A stretch of DNA of 64,000 nt from Candidatus Krumholzibacteriia bacterium (GTDB lineage Bacteria > Krumholzibacteriota > Krumholzibacteriia > Krumholzibacteriales > Krumholzibacteriaceae). The notes under the pieces were generated by a model, which was not told the origin of the DNA, made no database searches, and saw only the letters and a list, made by a program, of their open reading frames with translations. The DNA is taken from positions 224,001-288,000 of the forward strand of contig CAWIIQ010000003.1 of NCBI GenBank assembly GCA_963836185.1, written 5' to 3'. The position numbers and the translations under genes were made by a program. Position 1 is the stretch's first letter; each line of letters opens with the position of its first letter. Shown here one piece after another: positions 12,394-33,900 of the stretch.

Positions 12394-12885
12394 ATGAGAA
12401 GGAGTCTTTCCGTAGCGATCCTTCTTCTCTTCGCAGCCGTCTCCGCAGGCGCCGCCTTTGCCCAGGGCCCCGAGCTCAAGGGTGAGATGGCAGCCGCGAA
12501 GATCGTTGTCGATGAGGAAAAGGGAGAGATCGCTCTGCCCGCCGAGCAGGTCTACCCGAACGATATGGTCGAGTATACGCTGAAGTATACGAACTCCGGC
12601 ACCGCTACGGCGGCCGGTGTCGACCTGATCGGGCCCGTTCCGGTCGGAACGGTCTACATCGAGAAAACAGCAACCGACATCCCCGGACTCAAACCCATGT
12701 ACAGCATCGACCAGGGCAAGACCTGGCATGAAGCGCCGGTAATAGTCGAAGTCGCCCGCAAGGACGGGACGGTCGAGAAGAAGAAGGCCGACCCGGAGTT
12801 GATCACTCATGTCAAGTGGTCGATGGCGGAGAACCTCGATGTCGGGGAAGAGATCATGGTCAGCTACCGCGTCCATGTGAAGTAG
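12394..12885 (+). CDS. Small secreted single, C-terminally incomplete DUF11-like domain protein
   Basis: Signal peptide (AFA-Q), PNDMVEYTLKYTN, YSIDQGKTW, ends VKW..LDVGE..VSYRVHVK. Confidence 0.8.
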   Translation: MRRSLSVAILLLFAAVSAGAAFAQGPELKGEMAAAKIVVDEEKGEIALPAEQVYPNDMVEYTLKYTNSGTATAAGVDLIGPVPVGTVYIEKTATDIPGLKPMYSIDQGKTWHEAPVIVEVARKDGTVEKKKADPELITHVKWSMAENLDVGEEIMVSYRVHVK

Positions 12886-12987: not shown

Positions 12988-15676
12988 ATGACTTTCAGAA
13001 AGTCAGCTGGGCTCCTGGTGCTCCTGGCGATAGCGCTTGTCGTATCGTCGGCTGCCAACGCCCAGACGCCTGCCGGAACATTGATTCAGAACCAGGCTTC
13101 GGCCACGTTCCAGGATCTCTCCGGCAACACTTACACGGCGACCTCTAATCAGGTCACCACGATCGTACTCCCGGTATACGGGGTATCAGTCCTTCCGGAT
13201 GGTACCGTGGCTGCCCCGGGTATGGTCGGAACCTCGATACCCGGACAGACGGTATACTACAGCTACAACCTCACCAACACGGGTAATGACCCTGAAGATT
13301 TCACGATCGTACCTATTATCGACGCGGCCACGACGATGACGCTCGGGCTGGGCGATATAGACATCTACCATGATGTCAATGGTAACGGCGTGCTCGATGG
13401 CGGCGAGCCCGTTATCTCGGCTGGCGGCGTGGCGGGCAATACCGGCCTCGTTGCCGCCGGTACGACGATTCAGCTTCTTGTCGAGTATCAGGTCCCCGCG
13501 CTGGCTGCCGCCGGCGAGGTCGCCTATGTCGGCATGACGGCTACATCGGTCACCGACATCACCCAGGTAGATACGGGAAACATCCACCAGACAGACGTAG
13601 TGAGCGATGCTTCGCTGACCGCGACGATGTCCGGCCTTCCGGCCAGCCTCGATCCCGGCGACATCGCGACCTACACGATCACCGGACAGAATGTCGGTAA
13701 CGACATCGCCAACGGCGTCACCGTAGCTTCGGTAGGCCTGACCGGCGTTCTCGTATATGACATCCTCCCGACCGATCCTTCGACCGGTAACCCGCTGGCT
13801 CTCTCCGGCGCTCCTGCCGGCGCTCCCGCGGGCGGCACGGTACTGTACCTGCCTGCCGGAAGCCCGACAGTCGGTAACCCCGAGACGTGGGCATGGTCGA
13901 CCTCCGCCGCTGCCGGCGACATAGCGGTTGCTTATGTCACCAACGGCGGCCTGACGATCGGCATGAACTACAACTTCACCTATGACGTGACCGTTCCTCT
14001 GACGATGCCTGCCGGTATCATCAACAACTTCGGCGATGTCGCCTACGTGGACAACAACGCCGGCACGGCCGATCCGACGATCGTCACGACAAACAACACG
14101 CAGATCGATGTGAACGTCCTTGCCGACGTCCTCGTCGGTCCGAACGGCGTCCCCGATGCTGGAACGCCTCCTGCGTATAACGACGATTCACAGGCTGTCG
14201 CGAACGCCTACGCGAACGAGACGGTCGACTTTATCAATACTGTAAGGAACGACGGCAACGCCGCGGACGTTATCAATATCGTCCTCGATGCCGGCGCTTC
14301 GACATTCCCTCCGGGATACGGCATCCAGTTCTTCCGTATTGACGGTGTCACTCCTCTGAGCAATACCGGCGCGGACGCGATCCCCGATGTCGGCAACATC
14401 AACCCCGGCGCGACGCAGGACTTCATCGTCCGAGTCACCATACCGGGTAACGCCGTTGCTGGCGGCCCCTACCTGGCCGTAATCAACGCCGTTTCAGAGA
14501 ATGTCCCGGCCGAGCTCAACGTCACCACCGACGAGATCACCGCGGTCAACCCCGCGTCGGTCGATATCGGCAACTATGACGGACTGGTCGGAACCGACAA
14601 CAACCCGCTTAACATCGATACCGATCCGGGCCTGTCGGTCGACTTCGCTCTCGACGTGATCAACACAGGTGGCTCGAGCGACAACTTCGATCTGTCCGCG
14701 ACCATCCCGGCCGCCTGGACAGTTACTTTCTATCTCGATGCCAACGGTAACGGCATTCTCGACAACCCCGAGCTCACCCCGATCGCGAATGTCGGGCCGG
14801 TAGCCGCGGGCGGCGAGGTCAATGTTATCGCGCGCGTCGATGTTCCCGCCGGCGAGGTTCCCGGCGTGAACGCTACGACATTCAGAGCCGCTTCGGCTCT
14901 CAACGCAGGCATCTTCGACGAGATCGCCAACACTGTGACCGTGCTCGGCGCGGCCGCCGTGACGATCACGCCCGACAGAAACGGTACCGGTACCGCTAAC
15001 GGAACGATCCGTTACCAGCATACCGTGACCAACACGGGTAACGTCGACGATACCTTCATGCTCAGCGCGCTCAGCTCGAACGCGTGGAGCTACGCCTTCT
15101 TCGATCTGGCCAACAACCCGATCCCTTCGGTCACCCTTGTTGCCGGCGCCACCCAGGACATTATCGTCCAGGTGTCGATCCCCGGAGGCGTGGCTGTTGG
15201 AACGATCGAGACCGGCACGATCACAGTTACCGGTAACGGTACAGGCGCCACCGATTCGGCTGTCGACGTCACGACGATCGTCGCCGGAAACCTCGTACTC
15301 GCGAAGTTCGTCAATCCTGTGGGCAATCAGCTTCCCGGAACGGAACTGACCTACCGCACGGACTACTCGAACGTGGGTGTGGCGGACCTGACAAGCATAG
15401 TCATCTATGACGCGATCCCTGCCTGGACCCAGTTCAGGGTCGGCTCGGAGTCCGACGGCACACTGGCTCCCGGGATCACAGCGATGACGATTGAGTTCTC
15501 CAGATGACGGCGGCGCGACGTGGGTATACGTGCCTGTCGAGCGGCGGCAGGCGGAGCCCCCGCGGGCTTCGACGCCACTCGTGACCAACGTACGGTGGAC
15601 CCTCACCGGTACGCTGGCCGGCGGCGACAGCACTGTCGACGGCGTCTCCCTCATAGTGAGGATCATCGCGGAGTAG
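12988..15676 (+). CDS. Secreted DUF11/Ig-repeat protein, putative major fimbrial subunit (frameshifts about 15500-15580)
   Basis: Signal peptide (ANA-Q), TPAGTLIQNQA, repeated xxNTGNxxD Ig domains, DxNGNG loops; C-terminus continues EFSDDGGATW...TNVRWTLTG...LIVRIIAE*. Confidence 0.85.
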
Positions 15677-15690
15677 CAGTACGCAAAAAT

Positions 15691-15777
15691 AAGGCGGGAG
15701 GGGCCGCAAGGCCCCTTACGCCTTACAGTTAAATGACGTATTCAGAGGCAGGTCCCCATGGCGGGGCCGCCTCTGAA
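15691..15777 (+). terminator. Two tandem hairpins after the putative major subunit gene
   Basis: aaggcg..aggggcc-gcaa-ggcccct..cgcctt and ttcagaggc...gcctctgaa; no U tract. Confidence 0.6.
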
Positions 15778-15891
15778 TCAGTAAAAGGGGAAAAGGCGGA
15801 AAGACGGAAGGCACAAACGCAGCAACTGCAATAAACAGAGAGAGTTATGAAGTAAGGCACATACAGGAAAGTTAACCGGCGAGGCGGCGCC

Positions 15892-18800
15892 GTGAAGAGA
15901 AGGAATTACATCACTGATTTTTCCACCGGGTCCACCGGCAGGGGGATACTCCTGTGCGCGCTGGTCCTGGCCGCCATTTTTGCGCTTTCCTCGCCCGCAT
16001 TCTCCCAGATCCCCCCGGCCGGCACGGTAATATCGAGCCGGTCGTCCGCATCGTACGTCGACAACGGCAATCAGCTCACGATCCTCTCCAACGAAACAGC
16101 GTTCAGCGTTCTGCCGATGTTCGGGCCCCTTCTGACGCCTGACGGCACTTCCGCCGCGCCTGCCGCCACACGGACGGCGTTCAGCGGGGAGACGGTCTAC
16201 TACCCGTTCACACTGACCAACACGGGAAACGCCGACGATACGTTCGGATTGGCAACGGTCCTGGCGGCGCCATCCGATTTCGTTCCCTCGGCCACGGCGG
16301 TCTATCTCGATGGAAACGGTGACGGAGACGTCGACCCCGGCGAACAGGAGATCACAGAGGCCGGACCGCTCGCTTTCGGGGAGACGGTGCAGCTCGTCAT
16401 GTCCGCCACCCTTCCTTCCGGCCTGACCGGGGGAGAGATCGCGCACATGGATCTCGAGGCGAGATCGCTCGGCGACACATCGCAGGTCGATCGCGGGAAT
16501 GTCGTACGCGTCACGGCACGCGACGAGGCGAGAGTGGAACTTGCGCTCGAATCGGATGTCTCATCCGTCATGCCCGGCGGATTTGTGACATACACGATGC
16601 GGTACGTAAACACCGGTGAACGGACCGCGACCGGTGTCTCGATCACCAGCATGATCGACACCCTTGGATTTATCGATGGAACAGAATACCTGGCAGGAAG
16701 CGCGTCCGCCGTGCCCGCCGGACTGATCGAATATTTTGACGGCGAGACGTCGGCCTGGATCGATGTCGCCCCGCCGGAGAACAGGGTAAAGGGCGCCCGC
16801 CTGCGCCTCGATACCCTCGCCCCCGGAGAGGCGGGATCCTTCTCACTGACCGTCCGCGTCGACGACGATCATGCCCGCGGCAATATCGTGAACACGGCCA
16901 CGGCCGGATTCACGGGAGGCGACGGGTTGCCCTACCAGCTTCTTTCCAACGAAGTGACGGTCCTCGTCGGCATGATAAGCGAGGTCTGGCTTGGACCGCT
17001 CGGGGATCCGCTCGCGACGCCCGGGTCGGATGACGACAGGGTCGTGATCTCACTCGGCGCCGCGGATTCGGTCTGCGTCTTCAGGCATGAGATCCTCAAC
17101 GCCGGTAATTTCGCCGACACCTTCAGCCTCGTGCTTTCCGACTCGGTGATGATCCCGTCCGGCTGGCAGGTCGAGTTCCTCGGTCCCGGCGACGTGGTCC
17201 TTCCATCCCTTTCGGCGTGGTCCGCGAGGCTCGGTCCGATCGAGATCGGAGGAACCAGGGAAGTCGCGGTAAGGATATCGGCCAGCGCCGAGATACTCCG
17301 CAGCTTCACGGGCCGGGAATTCGCTTTCGATGTCGATGCGAGATCGCTTGTCGACGATGCGGCGCGTGACGAGGTGCGGAACGTGCTCGTCAAGGGGGAC
17401 ATGCCTCTGCTGTCGGTCAAGCAGTCGATCCGCGAGCCGAACGCGATGATCGGCGACGTCGTCAGTTTCATCATCACTGTCGAGAATATGACCGAAGAGA
17501 CGGTCATCGACAGTGTCAAGCTCGTCGAGAACTTCCCCTCAGGGCTGAAATTCTCCAAGGGGTACGAGCAGCCCGTCATCGAGAACAACAAGCTGATATT
17601 CGATCTCGGGCAGCTTCTGCCTGGAGCGAAGAGAGACATCGTCATCAGGGCGACAGTCGCGGCGGGGCAGGAGAAAGACGAGCTCGTAACGACCGCCTAC
17701 GTCTACGGCTCGACGCAGTACGGCGAGGCCGCTGAAGACGGTCCTGCCTACGCGTCCGTCAGGCTCTACGAGGGAGAGTTCACCAGGCGCGGGATCGTGA
17801 TGGGAAGCGTCTTCATCGACCGTGACGGAGACGGGATTCGCGGTCGGGAAGAAGAGGGTGTCCGCGGGGCGGCCGTCTTCTACGAGAAGGGCACATACGC
17901 AGTAACTGACTCGAGCGGGCTCTGGTCGATACCGGGCGTCGAGGAGGGAAGGCACGTCTTCCGTGTCGATCCCAAGTCGCTGCCCGATTCGCTTGTGCCC
18001 GGTCCGGCTGGACATTTCGGAATGGGTATCGCGGGGCAGTATCTGATCGATCTCGCCCCGTCGGGCAACCGCCGTGTTGATTTCCCTCTGCAGGTGACCG
18101 AGGTCGCTTCGGACGGGGACGCTTTCGCCGCCATTGAAAGCGACAGCGCGGCGGTTACCCGACAGGGCTCCGTCGGTACCGAGACCGCTGCGGCATCAAC
18201 ATCACCGGAGAGCAACGGCGCGAGCGATGACGCGGTGTCCGGGCCGGCGGGGCCGGAGAGTTCAGCCGATACGTCAGGTACGTATGATGCCCTTAACCTT
18301 CCGGGAACACTCTTCGCCGCGGGAAGCTCCGTGATGGAGGAGATCCCGCTGCGCGAGGTGGCGGCCCTGAGTCTCTGGGTGCGCGAGCATCCCGGCTGGA
18401 AGATTGAGATCGCGGGACACTCGGACAGCACGCCGATCAGGACGGCGGATTATCCGTCCAACTTCGAGCTTTCACTCGCCAGGGCGCGGAGCGTATACCA
18501 GCTCCTGCGGATGAACGGGATCCCTGAGGGCGTGATGGACTACACCGGATACGGCGCGAGGTTCCCCATCGCGAGCAACGACACGGCCGATGGAAGGGCG
18601 AAGAACAGGCGAGTCGAGATACGCGCCCTGCCGCCTGAGGGTTACGCGGGAGTCGATCCCGACATTCCTGCCGCGCTCGCGATGCCCGACACGACGGCGC
18701 CGAAGGAGTTCCAGCTCGCAGACGACGCAGGCCTCTGCGCCGAGATCGTCAAGCCGGCCGAGGGAACGATCTTCACTGAGAGGGACGGGATCGACATCGA

Positions 18801-21730
18801 AGTCGTCGCTCCTCTCGTCTCTACGGTGGAGCTCTACGTTAACAATATCCCTGTCGGCAGGGAGAAGATCGGGCAGAAGCAGATCGACATCGGCGAAGGC
18901 ACGCTCGGATTCATATTCTACGGTGTCAAGATCTCTCCGGGACTGAACAATATCCTCGTCGTCTGCCGATCACAGGGTGAGAAGAATGTCTGCGTCCGCC
19001 ACGTATATCTCGCCGGCAAACCCTCCCTGGTCGTTGCCGAGCACAGGGATGTAGAGGTGCCGGCGGACGGCAGATCGAAACCCGGGCTCGTGTTCCTCGT
19101 CAGCGACGAGCACGGCCTGCCCGCCAGGGACGGACTGTTCCTCACCGTGTCGGGCCCCGGCGACCTGATCGACAAGCTCGACGTCAATCCTCAGGTAAGG
19201 GGCGTACAGGTAGCCACGAAAGACGGCCGCGTCTCGGTCGATCTGCCGCCCTCCGATTATTCGCGCAGGGAGAAGATAGCCGTTACGCTTGAGGATCTCA
19301 CCGCCGAGAGCCGCCTCGAGTATGTCTCGCCGATGCGCGACTGGTTCCTCTTCGGATTCGGCGAGGGGGACGTCGGATACAGCAGCCTGACGGGGACCGG
19401 TTCTACACACAGGACATACGAGCGGTATCCCGACGGTTTCTATGCCGAGGGCAAGCTCGCCTTTTACGGCCAGGGCGAAGTAAGCACGGGCCATCTCCTG
19501 ACGATGGCGATCGATACGAGGCCGATAGTCGAGGATAAGCTCCTTGACCGGATCGAACCGGAAAAATACTACCCGATATACGGCGACGCCAGTGAACTGA
19601 GATTCAACTCGTACTCGAAATATGGTACCTACGCGAGACTCGAGCACCGCAGCTACAACGCGATGATCGGGGACTACAAGACAGAGTTCGGCACGATGGA
19701 GTTCACCAGATACGACAGGACCTTCTCCGGATTCAGGGGATGGGGGCGTCGCGGCCGGTTCGATGTCGCCGGGTTCATGTCTTACAGCGACCAGATCACC
19801 GTCCAGGACGAACTGCGGGCGAACGGGACTAGCGGATTCTACTTCCTCCACAGGTATCCGCTTCTCGAGAACAGCGAGAAGATCAGGATAGAGGTCCGTG
19901 ACAGGTACCAGCCGGAGAAGATCGTCCGCGTCGACTATTACAGCATCAACAAGGATTACGACATCAATTACCTGGACGGCTCGATACTGTTCAAAAAGCC
20001 GATCCTCGCCTTCGACGAGAACTTCAACCCGAGGCATATCGTCGTGACATACGAGTGCCGCTCGGCCGATGACAACAATGTCATCGCCGGTATCCGGCCG
20101 ACCATCGAACTGGCCGACTCGCTGATGATGGGAGTCACGGCGGTCATCCAGGACGAGGGCGAACACAATTACTCGCTTGTCGGCGTCGATCTTGCCGGGC
20201 ACCTGTACAAGGATCTGTTCATCGAGAGCGAATACGCGCACAGCGAGAAGTTCATCGTCGGAAGCGGAGACGCCTTCAGGTTCAAGCTTATGGGACGGCA
20301 CGACCGGATGCTTCGCTGGAGCGCCTACTACCGTGATATCGACGAGAGCTTCTTCAATCCCTCATTCTCCGGAGGAAAGACAGAGCTGGGCAGCAGGAAG
20401 ATCGGCGGCGGACCTCGACTGGAGGATCGGACGCGGATGGTCGCTGATCTCGAACGGATTCGGACACAGGTACGCACAGCGAAACGAGAAGAAAAGTTAC
20501 ATCGACGTAAAAGGAAACTATCGCTCCGGCGCGCTCGATGGATCCTTCGGCCTGGCGCACGCGACGTTCAGCGATTCGAGGGACGGCTCCTCCGCTTCAG
20601 GGCTTCTCGTCGCGGCAGGAGGGTACGGCAGCGAGAATACGAAGGCCGAACTGCAGCTCGACAAGAACGTCACCGGCGATGAAGTGCCCGATTATCCCGA
20701 CCGGATACAGGCGAAGCTGACACAGAAGATATGGAGATGGCTCAACGGTGTCCTCTCATACGAATACAGGTCGGGTAGCCGCTCCGGCTCGAGGCATCTT
20801 ACTCAGCTCGGTATCGAGTCGAGCATAACAGAGAATCTCAGCGCCTACTCACGCTACCGGATGGAAGGCGCGATGAGCGGTGAGCGCTCGCAGGCGATGA
20901 TCGGGATGAAGAACAGGTTCAGGCTCTCCCCCGGGCTGACATCGACCCTCTCGGTCGAGAAGCTCGCTACGGTAAGCGGGACTGATCTCGAAGACTTCAC
21001 GGCGTTTGTGACAGAGTGGCTCTTTACGCCGCCGGGTAAGGATTACAAGTTAAGCGGCGGGTACGAGATCAGACTCGACAGGCAGAGGACGAAGCATCTC
21101 GTAGGATTCGCGGCACTCAAACGCCTCAGCGAGACCTGGGCGGGTCTCATCAAGGTCGATGCCTGGCTGTCCGATGAAAAAGAGGGGATGAACCAGTCGA
21201 AGAGCTCGGGAAGGCTCGGCTTCTCGTACAGGCCGGCATACAAGCCACTGACTGTTCTTTCGATGATAAAGGGTGTTTATGAGAAGAACAGCCCCGCTCA
21301 TCCGTTCGGGGTAGACAAGGCCCTTACCGTGATGACCGAGGCGAACTATCACCTCAACGACAGGTGGGAGATCGAGGGCAAGGTCGTCGGCCGGTGGGTC
21401 GAGAACACCTTCAGGCTGCTTACGGTCAGCTCATCTTCGTACATGTACCAGGCCCAGCTGATCAGGATGTTCGGCAAGGCCTGGGACGTAAGCGTCGCCG
21501 GGCGCGTCGTGCAGCAGATAGAGACGGGCACCCTGAGATACGGCGGCGGGATCCAGGCCGGCAGGATGATCCGCGAGAATGTCTGGGTCGGCGCCGGGTA
21601 CGATTTCGGCGGTCACAGGGACGAAGACACCGAACTGAACGAATTCACGCAGAACGGGTTCCATATAGGCGTCAAACTGAAATTCGACGAGAAGCTGCTC
21701 GGCTATTTCAACGGCAGCTCGGGAGATTGA
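15892..21730 (+). CDS. About 1945-aa DUF11 + SdrD-B-like + OmpA + outer-membrane beta-barrel protein (frameshift about 20410)
   Basis: Signal peptide; pilin-like N-terminus; GSVFIDRDGDG..GE.GV SdrD-B motif; OmpA GHSD...NFELSLARA...NRRVEI; ORF 20177..21730 supplies amphipathic strands ending GVKLKFDE. Confidence 0.85.
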
Positions 21731-21759: not shown

Positions 21760-24660
21760 ATGATGAAGAGAAGTATCAAAAGTAAGACATTCAGAACGGC
21801 AGCACTCTTTGCCGTCCTTGTCATATCGGCAGCTGGAAGTGCCGGCTCTGGCGAGACAGTGATCGAAGGCGGGTTCGAGGGTGGATCGTTCGGTGCGGGC
21901 TGGGTGCATGGCGCGGCAAGGCTCAACGGGAATGAGAACGCCTTATGGGCCGACCATGATGTCGTTCTCGACCTTCCGTACACGGGAACCTGGTCTGCGC
22001 TGCTCGGCTACAAATACACAGCGGTCGCGAAGGACCGCTATGGATACATGTACCAGGAAGTCACGATCCCCGCGGACGCCTCCAGCGCAGTGTTCACCTT
22101 CCGTTACAGGCAGCAGGGATTCGATGGGCGCGCAAACGATCCTTTCGTGGCGGCAGTACGCGACCTGGCGGGCAACGTCCTCGCTACGATCGTCGATGTC
22201 GCCTTCGACGATCAGAGCAGCCACTACAAGGACAGCGGATGGGTCGATGTCACCTACGACATGAGCGCGTTCGCAGGCCAGACGGTACGTCTCGATTTTC
22301 GCCAGCACAACCTCCAGGACAACAGGTTCGAGACGTGGGTCTTCGTCGATGACGTCTCGTGTATATACAGGAAACATGTGGACCTTGCCGTCGACGGAAA
22401 CGGCGACGACGAATTCGGGGCCCCCGGAACAGGATCCGGGGGAATATCTGTTTCCAGCGGCGTGGCGGGTGGGACGGTTACCTACCTCATAGATATCGAG
22501 AACGAAGGTCTCGATATCGACTCCTACACAGTCTCCGCCTCACCCCCCGCCGGCTGGAGCGCCGTAATAAGATACGGCGGGGCCGACTATACCTCTCCAT
22601 GGACCACTTCGGCTGTCGCGCCGGGAACGACGATCTCGGCCGAGGTCATTTTGACTATATCAGCTGGTGCACCGGCAGGCAGCTATTCATCGATAGTCGA
22701 TGCCGTTTCGGTGTCCGATGGAACGAGATACGACAGCGTCACGCTCGGCACCACTATCACTTTAGTCCCGTTCGTGGCCGACCTCGTCATCGACGGTGAC
22801 GGACTGGGCACGATCGATCCCGCCGGAGGAGGCGGATCGTCGTCGGGAAGTGCCTATCCCGGAGCCTTTGTCGACTACGCTATCGAGCTTGTGAACGGCA
22901 GCAGCCAGCAGGACGATTTCACGATCAGCTTCGATTTCGATCCGGGAATAAGCGCAGTAATTATAGACGGAGCCCTGACCCATACGGCTTCGTTCAGTTC
23001 CGGGACGGTCGATTCCGGCGACTCGCGGACATATACGCTTCGCGTGACGGCCGATCCGACCTTTGCAGGAGGGGATTATCTCTCACACGTCTACGCCGCA
23101 TCCTCCGGCGATCCCTCCTCCGTGGACGGCGTCACGGCGACACTGACGGTCATCGCTCCCGTGCTCGACCTGGTCATCGACGGTAACGGAGACGGGATAT
23201 ACGATCCTTCCGGCAACGGCTTCGGTGGTGCGTACACCGTCGACGGCCTTCGTGGCACGACCGTTTATTTTTCGATCGCAGTGCAGAACGAGGGGGGAGT
23301 AGCGGATTCCTACACATTTACCTGGGACAGGCCTTCCGGCAACTGGTCCGCCGTGATCAACGACGGCACAACGGACCACGCTTTCCCGTGGACCTCTCCA
23401 GCCTTCGCTCCGGGTGAGGAGCGGACGTACACGCTCGCCGTCTCTATACCGAATAACGCGGCTTTCAATACCTGGGTATCGATCCTCGATGCAGTATCGG
23501 TCAGCGACGGCAGGATCGCGGAGAGTGTCTCGGCCGTCATCATGGTAAGCGACAAGATCGGGGTAGATGTCATCATCGACGGTAATGGTGACGGGGTTTA
23601 CGGTGGCCAGGGGACGGGAGCGGGCGGGTTGTCCTCCATTATGGCGGCGCCCGGCGACACGGTGACATTCGCGATAGTGGTCGAGAACGAGGGCGGAGTG
23701 GACAGCCACGACATCCAGTGGAACACTCCGGCAGGATGGTCGGTCCTTCTCGATGGGCAAGTCTCCCCGGTAGCCTCGGCGCCGGCGGGAGCCTACACCC
23801 TGCAGGTGATAGTGCCGCTGATGAGCCCGGTCGGGACCTTCGACATAATCCTCGACGCCATAAAGAGCAACAAGAACTTCTATGTCGACAGCGCGACCGG
23901 GCGGATCACCGTAACGGCCTCGCGACTCGTCGACGGTGTGATAGACGGGGCCGGCGACGACATCTTCGGCTCGGCGGGCCTCGGTGACGGCGGAACGTCC
24001 ACGCGCGGGACGGTGGCTGGAGTGGCAGTCGCGTTCATCGTCGAGATCCAGAACCAGGGGACGTTCGATGAGAGCTATACGGTAACGTGGAGCGAGCCGG
24101 CGGGCTGGACCGGGATCCTGGATGGATCGGTGCAGCCTTTCTCGACCGGTGTGATTCCCTCCGGAGGATCCGTGTCATACATCTTCGGGGCGACTGTGCC
24201 ACTGAGCGAGGTGCCTGGAGATTTTGATTATATCATCGATATAGTCTCAATCGACGATCCTCTGAACACGGAGAGCCTCACGGCACGTGTGACGGTTTAT
24301 CCTCCGCCGACGGTCGACCTGGTCAAGGCTGTCGACCTGGCCGCTGCCCAGCCGGGCGAGGTGGTCACCTATACACTTACATACTCGAACCCGAGCGCGG
24401 CGCCCATCATCGAGATCGAGATCGTCGATCCGGTACCGCCCGAGATGGAGCTCGTCCTTGACGCGTACGGCGCGGGGAGCGATATCTCCTGGACGACAGG
24501 GGCGGGCACAGTCTACCTTACGGCCGACCCTGCCGACGCAGATGAGGCCCTCTTCGACCCTGGCACGGGCGTCCTGCAGGTCATCCTCTCGCGGCAGGCA
24601 CCGTACATGCTCTCGACGGGTGAATCAGGCGTCATCGAGTTCCAGGTTAGAGTCAGGTAG
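21760..24660 (+). CDS. Secreted adhesin-like protein: N-terminal beta-sandwich, 5 Ig repeats, terminal DUF11
   Basis: Signal peptide; EGGFE..GW...WVFVDDV (CBM-like); repeats DLxxDGxGD; VDLVKAVD..PGEVVTYTLTYSN..IVDPVP..EFQVRVR*. Confidence 0.8.
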   Translation: MMKRSIKSKTFRTAALFAVLVISAAGSAGSGETVIEGGFEGGSFGAGWVHGAARLNGNENALWADHDVVLDLPYTGTWSALLGYKYTAVAKDRYGYMYQEVTIPADASSAVFTFRYRQQGFDGRANDPFVAAVRDLAGNVLATIVDVAFDDQSSHYKDSGWVDVTYDMSAFAGQTVRLDFRQHNLQDNRFETWVFVDDVSCIYRKHVDLAVDGNGDDEFGAPGTGSGGISVSSGVAGGTVTYLIDIENEGLDIDSYTVSASPPAGWSAVIRYGGADYTSPWTTSAVAPGTTISAEVILTISAGAPAGSYSSIVDAVSVSDGTRYDSVTLGTTITLVPFVADLVIDGDGLGTIDPAGGGGSSSGSAYPGAFVDYAIELVNGSSQQDDFTISFDFDPGISAVIIDGALTHTASFSSGTVDSGDSRTYTLRVTADPTFAGGDYLSHVYAASSGDPSSVDGVTATLTVIAPVLDLVIDGNGDGIYDPSGNGFGGAYTVDGLRGTTVYFSIAVQNEGGVADSYTFTWDRPSGNWSAVINDGTTDHAFPWTSPAFAPGEERTYTLAVSIPNNAAFNTWVSILDAVSVSDGRIAESVSAVIMVSDKIGVDVIIDGNGDGVYGGQGTGAGGLSSIMAAPGDTVTFAIVVENEGGVDSHDIQWNTPAGWSVLLDGQVSPVASAPAGAYTLQVIVPLMSPVGTFDIILDAIKSNKNFYVDSATGRITVTASRLVDGVIDGAGDDIFGSAGLGDGGTSTRGTVAGVAVAFIVEIQNQGTFDESYTVTWSEPAGWTGILDGSVQPFSTGVIPSGGSVSYIFGATVPLSEVPGDFDYIIDIVSIDDPLNTESLTARVTVYPPPTVDLVKAVDLAAAQPGEVVTYTLTYSNPSAAPIIEIEIVDPVPPEMELVLDAYGAGSDISWTTGAGTVYLTADPADADEALFDPGTGVLQVILSRQAPYMLSTGESGVIEFQVRVR
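22381..24300 (+). repeat. Five approximately 130-aa repeats starting D(L/V/G)xxDGxG
   Basis: Starts near 22381, 22780, 23167, 23566, 23932. Confidence 0.75.
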
Positions 24661-24819
24661 TCGGCCGCAGCCGACCGGGCTCTTCATTGCCGACACCCGT
24701 TTTCTGTGCTATAATCCCTATGTAACACCACGGCAGCTTATCCTTTTATTCGGCCCGCGCCAGTGGTCCCTCGACCCTTTACGGCCGGATTACAGTTTCT
24801 GTCATTGTCTGGAGGGGTG

Positions 24820-27800
24820 ATGATGAGACGCGCCCTCGTTCTATTTATTCTCCTGGCTATAATTCCGTCCACAGCACCGGCCCAGTCTCCTGAAATCGGG
24901 CGTATCGCGCTCTACGCCGATTCATTCAGAACATCCAGTGAAGTCGACCTGCCCGAGGCCTACACCTCGTTCGATCTCTACATCTTCTGCCAGCCGAGCG
25001 AAAACGGCATGTCATGCGCCGAGTTCGCCCTGGCCTCTACGACAGGATCGATGGTCGTTGCCGGGGGTGACTGGCACGATGGGTTGTCCGTGACGCTCGG
25101 GGATCTGATGACCGGAGTGAGTGCGTGTTTCGAGGAGTGCCAGACCGACTGGGTCTGTTTAGCCAGGGTGACGATGCTGAACTCTGATACGGACCCGGCT
25201 GTGATAGAGGTAGTGAGACATCCGGAGGCAGGTTACTACCAGTTCAGCAGCTGCCTTCCCGACCGTCCGATCGAACCGGTCTTCTTCGGGCCGGGCCTCT
25301 GTGTCAACTCTGACTGCACGCCTGATACAGATCCTCCCGTACCTGTAAGCATAGCTGTCGAGGACGATCTTCACATGACCCTGTACTTCGATGAAAAGGT
25401 ATTCGAGCCCGACGCTCTGGATCCGGGCAGCTACATCGTCTATTCGACAGAGGGCACACCGGATTCCATCCCTGTCATCTATGCGCTGCTGCGGCCCGAG
25501 GAGGACAGGGTGTGGCTGGTGCTCGGCGAGCATCTCACCGCGGACCCTTACAGGCTGGAGATAAGGGATCTCAGGGATGTCACGGGCAACCCCTCCCTGC
25601 CCGGAACCGGGATAGCGTTCGGCGGCGAGGATACTACTCCTCCCGATCTTCTGTACGCATACGCTCCGGACGATTTCAATGCGATCCTGGTCTTTACCGA
25701 AACGCTCGATCTAGTCTCGGCTGTTGATATCTCGAACTATACGACCGGTTGCGATGGTTGCCCCTCTGTCCCTCAGCCTGTCTCCGTGTCGATGAGGTCC
25801 GACGGCAGAAGTGTGTCACTGGCCCTCGACCGGCAGATGGACCAGGAGTGGATATACAACGTCACGGCCGGGGGTATCTTCGACATCTCGGGTAATGAGA
25901 TGGCTGCGCCTGTAACGGTCTTTTTCAAGGCGCCCGATACGACCCCGCCATCTATCGGCGAGGTATCGATCTCGTCGGATACCACGTTGAGGATACTCTG
26001 GAGCGAGACGCTCGATCCCGCATCGGCGGTCGATCTGGAGAACTACTCCTTTTTCAGGGACGGGCCGCCGGCCGAGCCGATGAATCTTGTATCAGCCGAA
26101 CTTTTCGGCGGCATCCATGTCAGTCTCGATTTCGAGCCCGCGATAGAGATCGATTGCGGGTATACACTGTTTGTAAGCGGGGTGACGGACAGCTCGATGA
26201 ATGTGATGCTTCCCGACACCTTATATGTAACACCTCTGGATACGATCCCTCCGGTCCTGCTCGGCGCTGAATGCATGGGGCTCCGGGACGTCGACCTGAC
26301 ATTCGACGAACCGGTCGATCCATCGGTGGCGGGAGCGACCGGATTTTTCCAGGTCTATCCGGCGGGAGATCCGGGGACTCTCCTTGATATAGACGGGATC
26401 TCTCTCTATCTCGGTGATACGGTAACCCGCCTTCATCTGATCGATGACCTCGCACACGGGATGAGTTACACGGCCCGCGTCATCAGCATCCGTGACCCGG
26501 CCGGGAACTCACTGCCCTCTCAGCAGCGCGATTTTACCTGTTACGACATATATTCCCCCGAAGTCCTCGAGATATTCCTGTCCGACCTCACGCATGTAAA
26601 TATCCGGTTCGATGAGATGGTCGATGGCGCGGCGGAACAGACGGCCAGCTATATCCTCCGTGAAGCGGCCGATTCCACTGCCGTGGTCGATCTGGCCTCT
26701 GCCGCCCTTTTCGATGGAGCGACGCGGGCAGTGCTGATAACGGCGGCGCCCCTCGGTATTGGCGAGATGTATATCCTGAAGATGAGCGGGATAGGGGACA
26801 TGATCGGGAATATGGTCGACCCGGACACTTCTTGGACCTTTATCGCTGAAGATACGGTCGATCCGGTCCTTCTCGGCCTTACCGTGACCAGCGACAGCAT
26901 CATCCATCTGGAATTCAACGAGCCCCTCGACCCGGCGGCGGCTGAGGATATCGCGAAATATGCCGTCGTGGAAACGGGCGACACATCAGTCAGGCTGCCG
27001 CTCCAGTCGGCATCGCTCGATCCGGCCGGCACTACGGCAGATCTCGAGATCGACGGGCGCGCAGCGATCGGGACGACGTACGCCGTCTGGATCGCCGGTG
27101 TGACGGATGTAGCGGGAAACGCATTCTACGGGGCCTCCGGCGACTTCCAATTCATCGACGACATCCCTCCGCGCCTGCTCTCCGTTGCCGGGGTGACGAC
27201 GAGGGATGTCATCGTCTTTTTCGATGAAGCGGTCACGGACGCCACGGCCGGTGACGAGCTCAACTACAGGCTGTATCCGACGGGCGACCCGGCATCAGAG
27301 GTCGGCATATTCCAGGCCGACAGACTCGCGGACCAGGTGACCGTCAAGCTCATGCTTTTCGAGGACCTCGCTCAGGGTACGGACTACACCCTCGATGTCG
27401 CCGATATCATGGACCTTGCCGGACATGCCATCGAGCCGGTTTCGATCGAGTTTCATTTCCTCGACCTCTTTCCGCCGGGGATCGTGGATGTGGACCTGAT
27501 CGACCCTTCGAGGCTGTCGATAGAGTTCGACGAACCTGTCGATTCGGTGACGGCAAGTGATATCAGGCAACTACGATGTATATCTGAGTTCTGATCCATC
27601 TGAGCTGATATCTGTGAATTCGATAGACTGGATGACCGGCGAGGTCCGGCTGAACCTCGCTACCGAGCCCCAGCCGAACGTTGACTACACGGTAAGGATC
27701 GATGGGGTCGAGGACCGGTTCGGCAATGCCTGCAGTGGACTCTACGGAAGCTTCAGGCGTGATGTCCTCGCGCCGTCGACAAAGATGTACCTCTTCGCCG

Positions 27801-28771
27801 ATGAATACAGGAGCACACACGATGTAGATGCCGATGTTCTTTACCAGCCTTTCAGTTATTACGTCTGGCTCGAGCCCGGCGGCAACGGAGTCTTCAGCGT
27901 CGATTACTCCCTGAGCGGGCCGGAGACGTATGTCCCGATAGGTATAGAGATGAATCCTGCCTGTGTGTCCGGGGTCCTTGGGGACCCCTGGATCGGGCAC
28001 ACCGTCGAGCTGTCGGTCTGTGAGCACGACTGGCTCTGGATCGCCCGGATCGACTGTATCTGTATCGATCCTGGAGAGCAGGAGGTAGTATGGATCGTGC
28101 CGCATCCCGGCGAGGGAGCGGTACAGGTCGCTTCATGCCTGGCAGGAAATCCGGTGGAGCAGGTGGTGGCGACATACCCGCTGCTCATAAACGCTGTTTA
28201 CATAGGCACGATGCTGGAGAGCTGGGACGTATCGCTGAGTGGCGGCGGTATCGAGCTGACCTGGTCGATCCTCCAGGCGGCGGGTTCGCCGGGGTTCGAG
28301 GTCTCACGAAGTTCCGAAGGCGCTGATATGTGGCAGAACCTCGACAGCGAGCTGATCCGCGGCGACGGCCTGAACTATTCGATGCTCGACATCGATGTCG
28401 AGTTCGGCCTGTCGTACAGGTACCGGGTCGAATGTGTCGAGGATGACGGGCGAAAGATCCTTTTCGAAACAGGTCCGGTCGCGACCCCGGCCATGCCGCT
28501 CACGCTCAGGCAGAACAATCCCAACCCGTTCAATCCTTCGACCCGCATCGAATTCCTCCTGCCGCGTCCCGGCCACGTCCGCATCGAGGTGTTCGATGTC
28601 AACGGGAGGCTGATCAGGGTCCTCGCCGACGGGCACTTAGCGAGCGGCGGGCATTCGGTCGACTGGGACGGACGGGACCGCACAGGCACGATGGTATCGT
28701 CGGGAGTATATTTCTACAGGCTGACGGCGGGGAAAGAGAGCCTGTCGCGGAAAATGGTGCTTCTGCGGTGA
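24820..28771 (+). CDS. Secreted protein with 8 Big_5/SbsA-like Ig repeats and FlgD/T9SS-type tail (frameshift about 27565)
   Basis: Signal peptide; eight DxxPP...F(D/N)E...NY...D.(A/S)GN repeats; QNNPNPFNP...KMVLLR. Confidence 0.85.
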
Positions 28772-30938: not shown

Positions 30939-33900
30939 TCAGCGGAGGTAAACCATCTTTCTCGTCTGCGTGAACTTGCCGGTGCTGATCTTCGCGAAGT
31001 AGACCCCGGAGGTCACGGCTCTTCCGGCATCGTCCTTGCCGTTCCATTCGGTGACGTGCCTGCCTGACGGCCTCGATACCGCCGTCTCGACCGTTTTGAT
31101 AAGCCTTCCAGCCGTATCGTAGATACGCAGGTCGACGACCCCGGCTTCGGCCAGGGTATACGCGATGTTCGTCACGCCGTTGAACGGGTTGGGGTAGTTC
31201 TGTTCGAGAGACGTTACGTATACAGGCGTCTCTTCCTCTTCCCCCTCTTCTTCGCCGATCGAGGTCTGGTCCTTCACGGAGAAGTATTCCTCGCTGATCC
31301 CTTCGCCCGTATTGAGCGACGGATCATAGGCGACGATCCTGATCACGCACGAGTCGGCGTCCATCATCGGGATCACCCACTCGCACAGCGAGTCGTTCGG
31401 TTCGCTGCTGAAGAGGATCTCGTAGTCGGCGCCGGCGTTGACCGACAGCCAGATGCTGACCGAATCGACAGCGTCGTTATCGGTCGCTATCCATTCGATC
31501 CCCATCGTATGCCCGACGTAGAATCTCTGTGATCCGTTCGGGTGGACGACCTGTACTACGGGATCGATATCATCGCCGGATGTGCAGTCGCCGGTGATGT
31601 TCGACCAGCCGCCGCTGTATCCCGCCGCGTTGACCGCGGCGATCCGGTAGTACGTGCAGACGGTCGGCGGCACATGGTCGAAGGTAGCCTCTGTCGACGG
31701 GACCGTCCCGAGCAGGGTCGCTACGCCTGGTGTAAAGCTGGACGAAGGTGATCCGTATATGTGGTAAAGGTCCGCATCCGGGAGCCCTGTCCAGCTGACC
31801 TGCAGGGTCGTATCATCGAGGGTCGAGGCCTGAAGGTCGCTGACGAAGGTGGGAGCGGCGAAATCGGCCGCCGGCCCTCCGAACGCTCCCTGGTCCGCTC
31901 TCGATCCGTCGGGGTCGGAAGGTCCCGCTGGGTCGCCCGCGTCGATAGCTCCGGAATGAGATCCGAGATGATAGTCGAAAGCAGTCGTGTCGGCATAGAA
32001 CGGATCGCTTCCCGCGTTCGTCCCGTCGGGGGTCACGACGTAGTAATCGGCGGGCGAGTTGCCGAAGGCGTTGTTGTATCTGAAGTCGATGTTATCCAGG
32101 CTGATCGCCTGGAACCCGTAACCGGTGCCGAAGGTGAAGAGATTGTTCTTCACGGTCATCGTCACGGTTGTGCCGAGCATCGTGTTGCCGCCGCCGTACA
32201 GGGCTGTGTTGCGGTCGAAGACGCTGTGTTCGATACTGCCCCAGAGGCTGTCCGCGTATAGCCCTCCGCCTATCAATGACGCTTCGTTCGCCGCCAGGAT
32301 CGAGTTGTCGATATCAATCGAGGCGTAACCGTGATAGATGCCGCCGCCCATCGAACCGGCGGTGTTGCCCGAGATGAACACGGCTGAGGCTGAGAGCCCT
32401 GCACGTTCGGTGCAGATCCCGCCGCCCGACGCGTTGCATGTGTTCGAGGATATCGTGTCGCCGTCGAGGGAGATCGAACCGAACTTCGCAAAAATCCCGC
32501 CTCCATTGACGTAACCGCTGCAGTCCTCGATCACGTTGCCGGACAACGCGGCATCCGAGTACAGGGAGAATATCCCGCCGCCGTTCTTCGTGCCGTTATA
32601 CTCGAGGAAGGGGGAGGTCCCGCTGATCGTGTTGCCCGTGATCACGGCCGATGCCTGATAGAGGTATATCCCGCCGCCGCTCTGCGCGACACAGTTGCTG
32701 ATCGTGTTGCCCGCTATCGTCACGGTCCCGTCGTAGCAGGCGATTCCGCCTCCGCCGCTGAACTGCGAGGCGTTTATATATCCGCAATCAGTTATGATGT
32801 TCCCTGTGATCGTCGGTGAGGCGATGTATGCGAAGATGCCGCCGCCGTAGATCCCGTTTTCGGGGAGCTGCGCGCTCTTGCCGGACCCGCCGGTGATGGT
32901 GAATCCGTCGATGCCGCAGAAACCGTCGATATTCATGAAGGCGACGACGCTTCCGGGGTACTGTAAGGGTAGTCACATTCACGGACGGGTCGCGCGACTC
33001 GAATCCAGCGTCCCATCCTCCGAGAAGCATTACGGCTTTTTCGACTACCACGGGGTCATTGTAGGTCGCGGCGGCGACCATGATCGTATCGCCGTCCCAC
33101 GCGACGTCTTCCGCGTCCTGGATATCGCGGGCCGCCCACTCGGGCAGCGAGTACGGGAAGATGTTGTTGCCCGTGGGCGAGACGTAACGGTAAGGCTTAC
33201 CGATGATCCTGAAATCAGCCCTCGCTCGCGTCCGAGCCTCCGACCTCTCCTTCGGAATACGCGACGACCTTGATACGCATCGTGCGGACGGGCCATTCGG
33301 GAACGGTCCACATGTAGCTTGTCGCAAGGCTGTCAAGGCCGGTGACTATCGTCGAGTCGAAGCTCGCCCCGCTGTTGAGGCTCGCGAAGACGCTGATCGA
33401 ATCGGGGGTCTGGCGCGAGGTGGCCCAGGTGATCTCGAATTCCTCGCCGACATCGAGTTCCTCGCCGCCGTTGGGCGAGGTCACGTTGACGAAGATCCTG
33501 GCCGGGATGTAGTCGGGCACATATACGGAGCCTTCGCCGATGCCGCAGGCTCCGTACGCGATGTATGCGTATCCGTTGTCGCCCCAGCTGAGTCCCCAGC
33601 TGTTCTTGACTATCCACGCGCCCTGGCCGCCGCACAGGTTGTCGTTCCAGCCGACGATGAGCATCGCGTGGTTCGGCTGGCTGGCGTCGTCGTAGCTCCA
33701 GCATCCGCCTGTGTAGTCGTAGAAGTTGTTGTGGACGTAGAAGGATGACGTGACCGGGCCGTAGTCGAATATTGCCTGCTTCACGGCGTCGACGGTCCTG
33801 GGGACATCGTAATATTCGGGGCCTATCCTGGCCTGAGGCTCGCAAAGGTCCTGCCTGCAAGTATGGCCGTCTGATTCCGTATAGGGCATGCAGGCCTCCG

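Follow-up and report, generated by a model that had tools for sequence, protein, structure and literature searches.

A DUF11 domain split between subunits and a putative self-locking fibre operon in a Candidatus Krumholzibacteriia bacterium

The 64,000-nucleotide window analysed here (positions 224,001 to 288,000 of contig CAWIIQ010000003.1, assembly GCA_963836185.1, Candidatus Krumholzibacteriia bacterium) contains a cluster of four co-oriented genes on the forward strand, on which all features described below lie. The cluster encodes a small secreted protein of 163 residues (12394..12885), a major subunit (12988..15676), a giant outer-membrane barrel protein (15892..21730) and a tip-like protein of 966 residues (21760..24660). 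The major subunit comprises a signal peptide, an N-terminal donor beta-hairpin (residues 26–62; 13063..13173), six immunoglobulin (Ig)-like domains and a terminal acceptor half-domain of the DUF11 family (15283..15673). Its named close homologues come mostly from Candidatus Krumholzibacteriota. We propose that these proteins likely form a surface fibre in which neighbouring subunits complete one another's folds and become covalently locked.

In the assembly, the open reading frame of the major subunit ends at 15507, and a +1 frameshift at about 15502, overlooked in a preliminary description of this DNA, shifts the rest of the acceptor domain, which runs on to 15676, into a different frame. Homologues of the major subunit are unbroken (884–920 residues), and a tblastn search with a 92% identical relative, P0001, recovered residues 1–839 in frame 1 and residues 840–894 in frame 2. 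Single extra bases at about 15502, 15537, 15549 and 15578 are absent from four relatives. The barrel gene is likewise interrupted in the assembly by a +1 frameshift near 20410. The frameshifts in both genes are likely long-read consensus errors, a judgement that rests on relatives, the contigs from 4 of 22 sequencing runs being those of relatives and patchy. The assembly seems insertion-prone (15502–15578, ~20410, ~27570), and gene calls of this genome may be truncated.

The donor hairpin and the acceptor half-domain tile one DUF11 domain without overlap. Alignment with hhalign placed acceptor residues 764–894 on positions 3–134 of the 174-column internal DUF11 domain of the major subunit (probability 99.2, versus 18.3 for a stalk-domain control) and donor residues 26–62 on positions 138–172 (93.2, versus 0.3), the donor supplying the last two strands, which the acceptor lacks. 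Three motif residues can be read directly from the sequence at the positions given in the preliminary description: Asn35 in the donor (IQNQA, 13090–13092), and Lys773 (LVLAKFV, 15304–15306) and Asp808 (YDAIP, 15409–15411) in the acceptor. In the profile alignment, Lys773 and Asp808 fall on the Lys and Asp columns of the internal domain and Asn35 on its Asn column, and the Asn does not lie within one continuous domain with the Lys and Asp. Judged by these alignments, the penultimate, Asn-bearing strand of the major subunit is one that has moved to the N-terminus. In 85 complete cases the terminal domain ends short of the Asn strand, and the tails gave at most one weak donor-like match (E 0.009).

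The main text of PMC12617251 describes DUF11 as CnaA-like, with a bond that ties the first strand to the penultimate one, and its Table 1 lists K187, D224 and N299 as the isopeptide residues of SpaD. The triad columns of our profile align with positions 8, 45 and 120 of 4HSQ (E 0.0026; index counted by hand), a spacing identical to that of the SpaD residues, so that the triad positions map onto crystal-proven isopeptide residues. An AlphaFold2 (AF2) model of the internal domain (13600..14121) superposes on the CLIPPER structure 9IFR (Z 11.3, root-mean-square deviation (rmsd) 2.4, 122 residues aligned) and on SpaD 4HSS (Z 12.2, rmsd 2.9, 131 aligned), with BcpA as the top structural match (Z 13.3). 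The domain had initially been called CnaB-like, which the superposition on 9IFR and the description in PMC12617251 correct to CnaA-like; the accompanying logic of a first-strand Lys, a catalytic acid and a late-strand Asn holds, with columns that match those of SpaD. Single-sequence searches of the PDB gave no significant match, and Foldseek with the whole major subunit returned only generic multi-Ig matches. Viral contigs yielded only two short matches of 17 residues, which were disregarded.

In a profile scan of the whole genome, the major subunit and the barrel protein alone showed N-terminal donors, and terminal acceptors were confined to the major subunit, the tip-like protein and the small protein. 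A fifth DUF11 match in the genome (C3:55505) was set aside as an unrelated secreted protein that has, by eye, a tail resembling FlgD and type IX secretion system (T9SS) domains and is missed by both the donor and acceptor profiles. The tip-like protein, delineated by domain matches and motif positions, combines an N-terminal choice-of-anchor-J/MAM-like domain, stalk domains and an intact terminal acceptor half-domain (24298–24657) carrying Lys856 (VDLVKAV, 24325) and Asp890 (VDPVP, 24427), again as first described, and gave no donor hairpin match in the whole-genome scan. All 21 complete tip genes of related loci encode the Lys and Asp and no donor. With an acceptor half only, the tip can be completed only by another chain and, given that the barrel protein is donor-only, some links at least have to be made from one chain to another.

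Complex prediction with two fragments of P0001 (residues 758–894 and 26–206) gave a score of 0.92 in three runs, whereas the best of three controls reached 0.00; the mark set for this score is attained by 116 of 157 solved pairs and 2 of 215 mismatched pairs, counts that hold only approximately with the alignment used. The runs share at least 93% of contacts, with a partner pLDDT (predicted local distance difference test) of at least 93. Lys773, Asp808 and Asn35 are all interface residues in the predicted complex, as the preliminary description had anticipated. Residues 804–807 pair antiparallel with 37–41 (805–40, 806–39, 807–38), L771 contacts residues 37, 39, 53 and 54, and K773 contacts 53, 54 and 56. 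By strand register, Lys773 should lie beside Asn35. The hairpin leaves the complex at residues 60–61, next to 781–782; judging from the order of strands, this exit probably lies at the opposite pole to the acceptor entry, as in a tandem chain.

Since donor and acceptor are on the same polypeptide, the bond might instead form within one chain or within small closed rings, the major subunit being a circularly permuted, self-closing protein and only the tip and barrel contacts being made between chains. CnaA-type folds accept inserted domains according to the main text of PMC12617251, and such closure is compatible with the complex prediction and with the AF2 monomer of P0001 (mean pLDDT 89.7), in which residues 31–60 reach a pLDDT of 84–88. 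It would, however, require a full circle of six Ig-like domains, with a hairpin that probably exits (60–61, by 781–782) at the pole opposite the acceptor entry; the same monomer falls below a pLDDT of 50 at residues 765–767, the link into the acceptor, and has a predicted template modelling score (pTM) of only 0.57. A closed major could join neither tip nor barrel, yet the tip, major and barrel genes co-occur. We therefore consider self-closure improbable, the least probable of the three alternatives weighed in this study.

The interface residues are strongly conserved. All 120 close homologues have K773 and D808, and all 117 of those with an N-terminus have N35, although 149 of 835 columns (~18%) are invariant in this set, which makes the invariance of the triad alone weak evidence. 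A stronger indication is that K773 is the sole Lys past residue 30 in 100 of 121 sequences. For the distant set, 150 representatives were listed at the 50% level (5,869 matches in all), 86 of them with both halves; the curated alignment holds 83 of these plus three from another homologue set, again 86, three partial or truncated rows being left out. The interface Lys-Asp/Glu-Asn combination is retained in 79 of these 86 distant majors. Counts in genome loci refer to the best 80 of 304 loci, among which Lys and Asp occur in 75 of 75 complete majors; the Asn in the 80 loci is not evidence, as the search pattern itself contained Asn.

The complete internal DUF11 domains of the operon have lost part of the triad, as had been noted by eye, and the part lost in all three is the Lys. 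In the major subunit the Lys site is Met214 (13627), with Asp258 and Asn347 retained, while the two internal domains of the barrel protein have L219/S253/N334 and Q511/E546/T600 at the three sites. The claim that the triad survives only at the subunit interface describes this lineage well (internal Lys-Asp-Asn in 13 of 120 close homologues) and was rejected as a family-wide rule: 68 of 86 distant majors hold the internal triad, compared with the 79 that hold the interface one (Fisher p 0.029, for sequences that are not independent and an alignment whose errors may undercount internal sites). From these counts, the usual state of the family would be one locked both inside and between subunits. 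The internal domain can hold on to Asp and Asn where the Lys has gone, which leaves the Lys as the one discriminating residue. On the tree of the close clade, the internal Lys site alternates between Lys, Met and Leu, with at least three changes. Sequences with Lys at the Met214 site are nested within this tree, which suggests that the internal lock can be regained.

The small protein, a secreted acceptor-only half-domain (Pfam DUF11, E 3.6e-5), has Gly at the catalytic-Asp site. Its gene precedes that of the major subunit in 77 of 80 related loci, and in none of these 77 is the site Asp (Leu 27, Ile 25, Gly 22, Val 2, Asn 1). The register of its Lys site is ambiguous (Lys 43, Arg 19, others 15; or Ala two places earlier), and the Asp site alone was therefore used. 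On this basis the small protein is predicted to be a non-covalent cap or chaperone, and its loss of Asp would serve as a natural control for the interface triad.

The barrel protein, with Pfam matches to DUF11, OmpA and SdrD_B, measures approximately 1,945 residues in homologues and consists of a donor hairpin, Ig and DUF11 domains, an OmpA peptidoglycan-binding domain and a very large beta-barrel. A model of the last 820 residues of a relative (L007; pLDDT 78.1) has several strands up to residue 271 and 31 beyond it; the FimD barrel has 24. SprA (6H3I) is the only structure that aligns across the whole barrel span (Z 17.8, rmsd 11.8, 613 residues aligned, 11% identity), a match that reflects size and need not mean kinship. 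FimD aligns to 325 residues within 64–553 (rmsd 8.3), PapC also covers only part, and Foldseek returned template modelling scores near 0.2 only. No usher family was found for the barrel protein in Pfam, nor among the 25 of 38 NCBIfam matches listed.

The donor hairpin of the barrel protein (16009..16113) carries Ser49 (16036) at the Asn site, a substitution absent from the preliminary description. This site is Ser in 46, Gly in three, Ala in two and Asn in none of 51 close homologues, and it is Ser, Gly or Ala in all 12 donors detected in loci L006–L025, where three more barrel genes have no donor match. Downstream donors outside this lineage, by contrast, have Asn in 45 of 46 cases. With Ser in place of Asn, the base link from the last major to the barrel protein is probably non-covalent in this lineage, as against a predicted covalent one in most others. 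Krumholzibacteriota may be able to release the fibre from its anchor. The original idea that subunits crosslink one another accordingly needs to be divided: it gains from halves that are predicted to rebuild one domain, from a triad in register and from a tip that requires another chain, but it does not extend to the barrel link, where Asn is found in 0 of 51 sequences.

Directly 3' of the major gene lie two RNA stem-loops (15690..15782) with a folding z-score of −6.45, none of 200 shuffles folding as well; 56 of 74 loci have a hairpin with z < −2 after their major gene (mononucleotide shuffles). Through these stem-loops, the major subunit is likely made in larger amounts than the products of the downstream genes. 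This bears on a further possibility, in which covalent links yield no more than a short stalk of tip, one or a few majors and barrel, in effect a multi-gene fibrillar adhesin whose barrel may anchor without exporting. The major subunit alone is already seven domains long, and its passage through the barrel is presumptive. Nevertheless, the major subunit bears both halves and could in principle self-polymerise, the stem-loops of 56 of 74 loci suggest an excess over barrel and tip, and a dedicated cap-like protein accompanies 77 of 80 loci. A short stalk is unlikely in our estimate, if a little less so than self-closure.

Taken together, we favour a fibre of the form tip-(major)n-barrel, whose subunits would be joined by hairpin donation and a between-chain Lys-Asn bond, and assign this reading a probability of roughly 0.64. 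The subunits would be secreted, with the dead acceptor cap holding donor hairpins reversibly in the manner of a chaperone. At the barrel, the two-stranded N-terminal hairpin of one subunit would complete the unfinished C-terminal DUF11/CLIPPER domain of the adjacent one, bringing the Asn35 of the donating chain next to Lys773 and Asp808 of the accepting one, whose buried Asp would catalyse a spontaneous isopeptide bond between the chains. Assembly would run from the tip (acceptor only) through repeated majors (donor and acceptor) to the barrel protein (donor only), which would anchor the chain, its OmpA domain on the cell wall, and probably export it. For this lineage, we expect covalent links between tip and major and between successive majors, a non-covalent base link and unlocked internal DUF11 domains. 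The motif residues, the division of the domain, its conservation and the gene order are direct observations, from which, with the predicted complex, we infer the bond, a polymeric product and what the cap and barrel do.

Several points weigh against this proposal. Two of the four operon genes are frameshifted in the assembly. The pair 773–35 is absent from the 25 contact pairs listed for the complex, so that the triad geometry comes from registers and homology; the complex score may reflect likeness to solved complete CnaA/CLIPPER domains, and the prediction is blind to whether pairing is between chains or within one. The interface triad is missing in 7 of 86 distant majors (~8%), which indicates that the bond is dispensable in some lineages. 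Six distant majors lack the acceptor Lys and five of them still have the donor Asn; coupled loss, considered as proof of pairing, was seen in only one of the six. Finally, the internal Asp and Asn are retained in 118 of 120 close homologues even though the Lys is mostly lost.

The last of these points also bear on whether a bond forms at all. Hairpin complementation might suffice, with the triad retained as a relic or a polar network: the internal domain keeps Asp and Asn without Lys, seven distant majors lack the interface triad, the losses are mostly uncoupled, Asn is missing at the base link here, and the main text of PMC12617251 notes that the bond is absent from some DUF11 domains. An invariant core-facing Lys that is the sole Lys of most sequences is hard to explain in this way, and K773 is constant in the same 120 sequences in which the internal site flips between Lys, Met and Leu at least three times. 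We thus rate complementation without a bond as a minor possibility, on a par with the short stalk, and retain the covalently locked fibre as the preferred reading.

Other features of the major subunit and its surroundings were also recorded. The major subunit carries repeated DxNxNGxxDxxE loops with invariant acidic residues, e.g., DVNGNGVLDGGE (residues 129–140) and DANGNGILDNPE (584–595), which we take to resemble calcium-binding motifs. One of its stalk domains (profile 367–491) gave a weak match to the archaeal filament protein AbpX (9SJ2, E 0.0005), possibly through a shared Ig-type fold only. After the operon, a Big_5-repeat protein with an FlgD/T9SS-like C-terminal domain is encoded at 24763–28771 by a gene that a +1 frameshift near 27570 apparently interrupts; this protein has neither a donor nor an acceptor half. 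FlgD-Ig/T9SS-like sorting domains end several secreted proteins (30939–32936, 27557–28771 and G000:C3:53672–57106, the last by eye).

Related clusters occur in Thermus thermophilus HB8 (plasmid pTT27), in Deinococcus radiodurans and on Pacificitalea plasmids. The HB8 cluster (L003, 11433–25789; TTH_RS10905–10925) consists of five genes, encoding a small protein, a major subunit with the Asn, Lys and Asp, a donor-only protein of 901 residues, a hypothetical protein of 1,795 residues and a tip with Lys and Asp; the donor-bearing half and the 1,795-residue protein are thus separate genes, and the barrel profile misses the latter. This cluster offers a tractable test system; in the literature, Thermus and Deinococcus locus tags led only to one row of a proteomics table. 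If the proposal is correct, a function would be available for a gene cluster annotated merely as "DUF11" or "hypothetical", including the pTT27 copy, and nature would hold a CnaA-type tag-and-catcher pair in many sequence variants, some of them from thermophiles. Covalent pili are known from Gram-positive bacteria and have sortase-made links, a route described for monoderms in the consulted part of the review PMC13721041; a pilus that welds itself and brings along an outer-membrane barrel would, if real, be an additional pilus class for two-membrane bacteria.

The arrangement recalls several known systems. In chaperone-usher pili (FimH/FimA/FimC/FimD; Pap), an incomplete Ig-type fold is likewise finished by the neighbour's N-terminus, a step that is predicted here, and both include a tip with an acceptor only, a dedicated barrel and a small chaperone, which is putative in our case. 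Our operon differs in its two-strand donor on a CnaA fold, its multi-domain subunit of approximately 870 residues and its predicted covalent lock; its cap would be an acceptor rather than a donor, and its barrel has a donor hairpin of its own and an OmpA domain. The small protein and the subunits matched DUF11, DUF7507 and TIGR01451, with no PapD or Fimbrial family in Pfam or among the NCBIfam matches listed. Sortase pili (SpaD, BcpA, RrgB) share CnaA domains and the same triad, but there a sortase links subunits at LPXTG and the autocatalytic bonds are internal, whereas majors and tips here end at or a few residues from the acceptor's last strand and carry no LPXTG sorting signal or sorting tail.

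Closest in chemistry are CLIPPER domains and BsaA. CLIPPER/DUF11 domains (PF01345, 9IFR; PMC12617251) share the CnaA-like fold with Lys, Asp and Asn on the first, middle and penultimate strands, but in that paper's main text, where the term "donor strand" does not occur, they are described as intramolecular stalk repeats; here the domain is interrupted ahead of its final two strands, its halves lying at opposite ends of one protein or on different proteins. In Clostridium perfringens BsaA, as described in the consulted part of PMC11580942, an autocatalytic bond joins subunits and the N35A, K74A and E56A mutations each abolish oligomers. BsaA likewise has its Asn on an N-terminal donor and its Lys and acid on the acceptor; unlike the operon described here, it is a SipW-processed, Gram-positive protein of the TasA/camelysin family with a Glu catalyst and no outer-membrane barrel. 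No TasA/camelysin-family match was found for the operon proteins in Pfam or among the NCBIfam matches listed. The archaeal thread Saci_0406 shares donor-strand complementation and a proposed intermolecular isopeptide bond, which according to the consulted part of PMC9715654 joins Asn57 to the N-terminal amine of subunit n+2, without a Lys-Asp-Asn triad.

Donor strands also appear in models of Tafi, in the portion of that report consulted. A-ENA reportedly forms auto-crosslinking fibres. The DUF11 domains in papers on the Litorilinea hook, F-ENA, the type XI secretion system (T11SS) and Bipolaricaulota belong, in the parts consulted, to other structures and were set aside. Our search of the open literature found no account of this system, although split domains of this kind could figure in the supplementary hit tables of PMC12617251. 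For each pilus family tried, a defining feature was absent here. The isopeptide chemistry and the exchange-and-lock idea are known from CLIPPER and BsaA, and the bond alone would be a variation on that chemistry; the novelty lies in the split domain and its assembly system. On balance, we lean slightly towards an undescribed and widespread class of two-membrane pilus, spanning Krumholzibacteriota, Deinococcota, Acidobacteriota, Pseudomonadota, Verrucomicrobiota and others, in which a sortase-free covalent split-isopeptide polymer would be metered by a dead cap and exported and anchored by its own barrel, with an Asn-less base in the present lineage from which the welded fibre could be shed.

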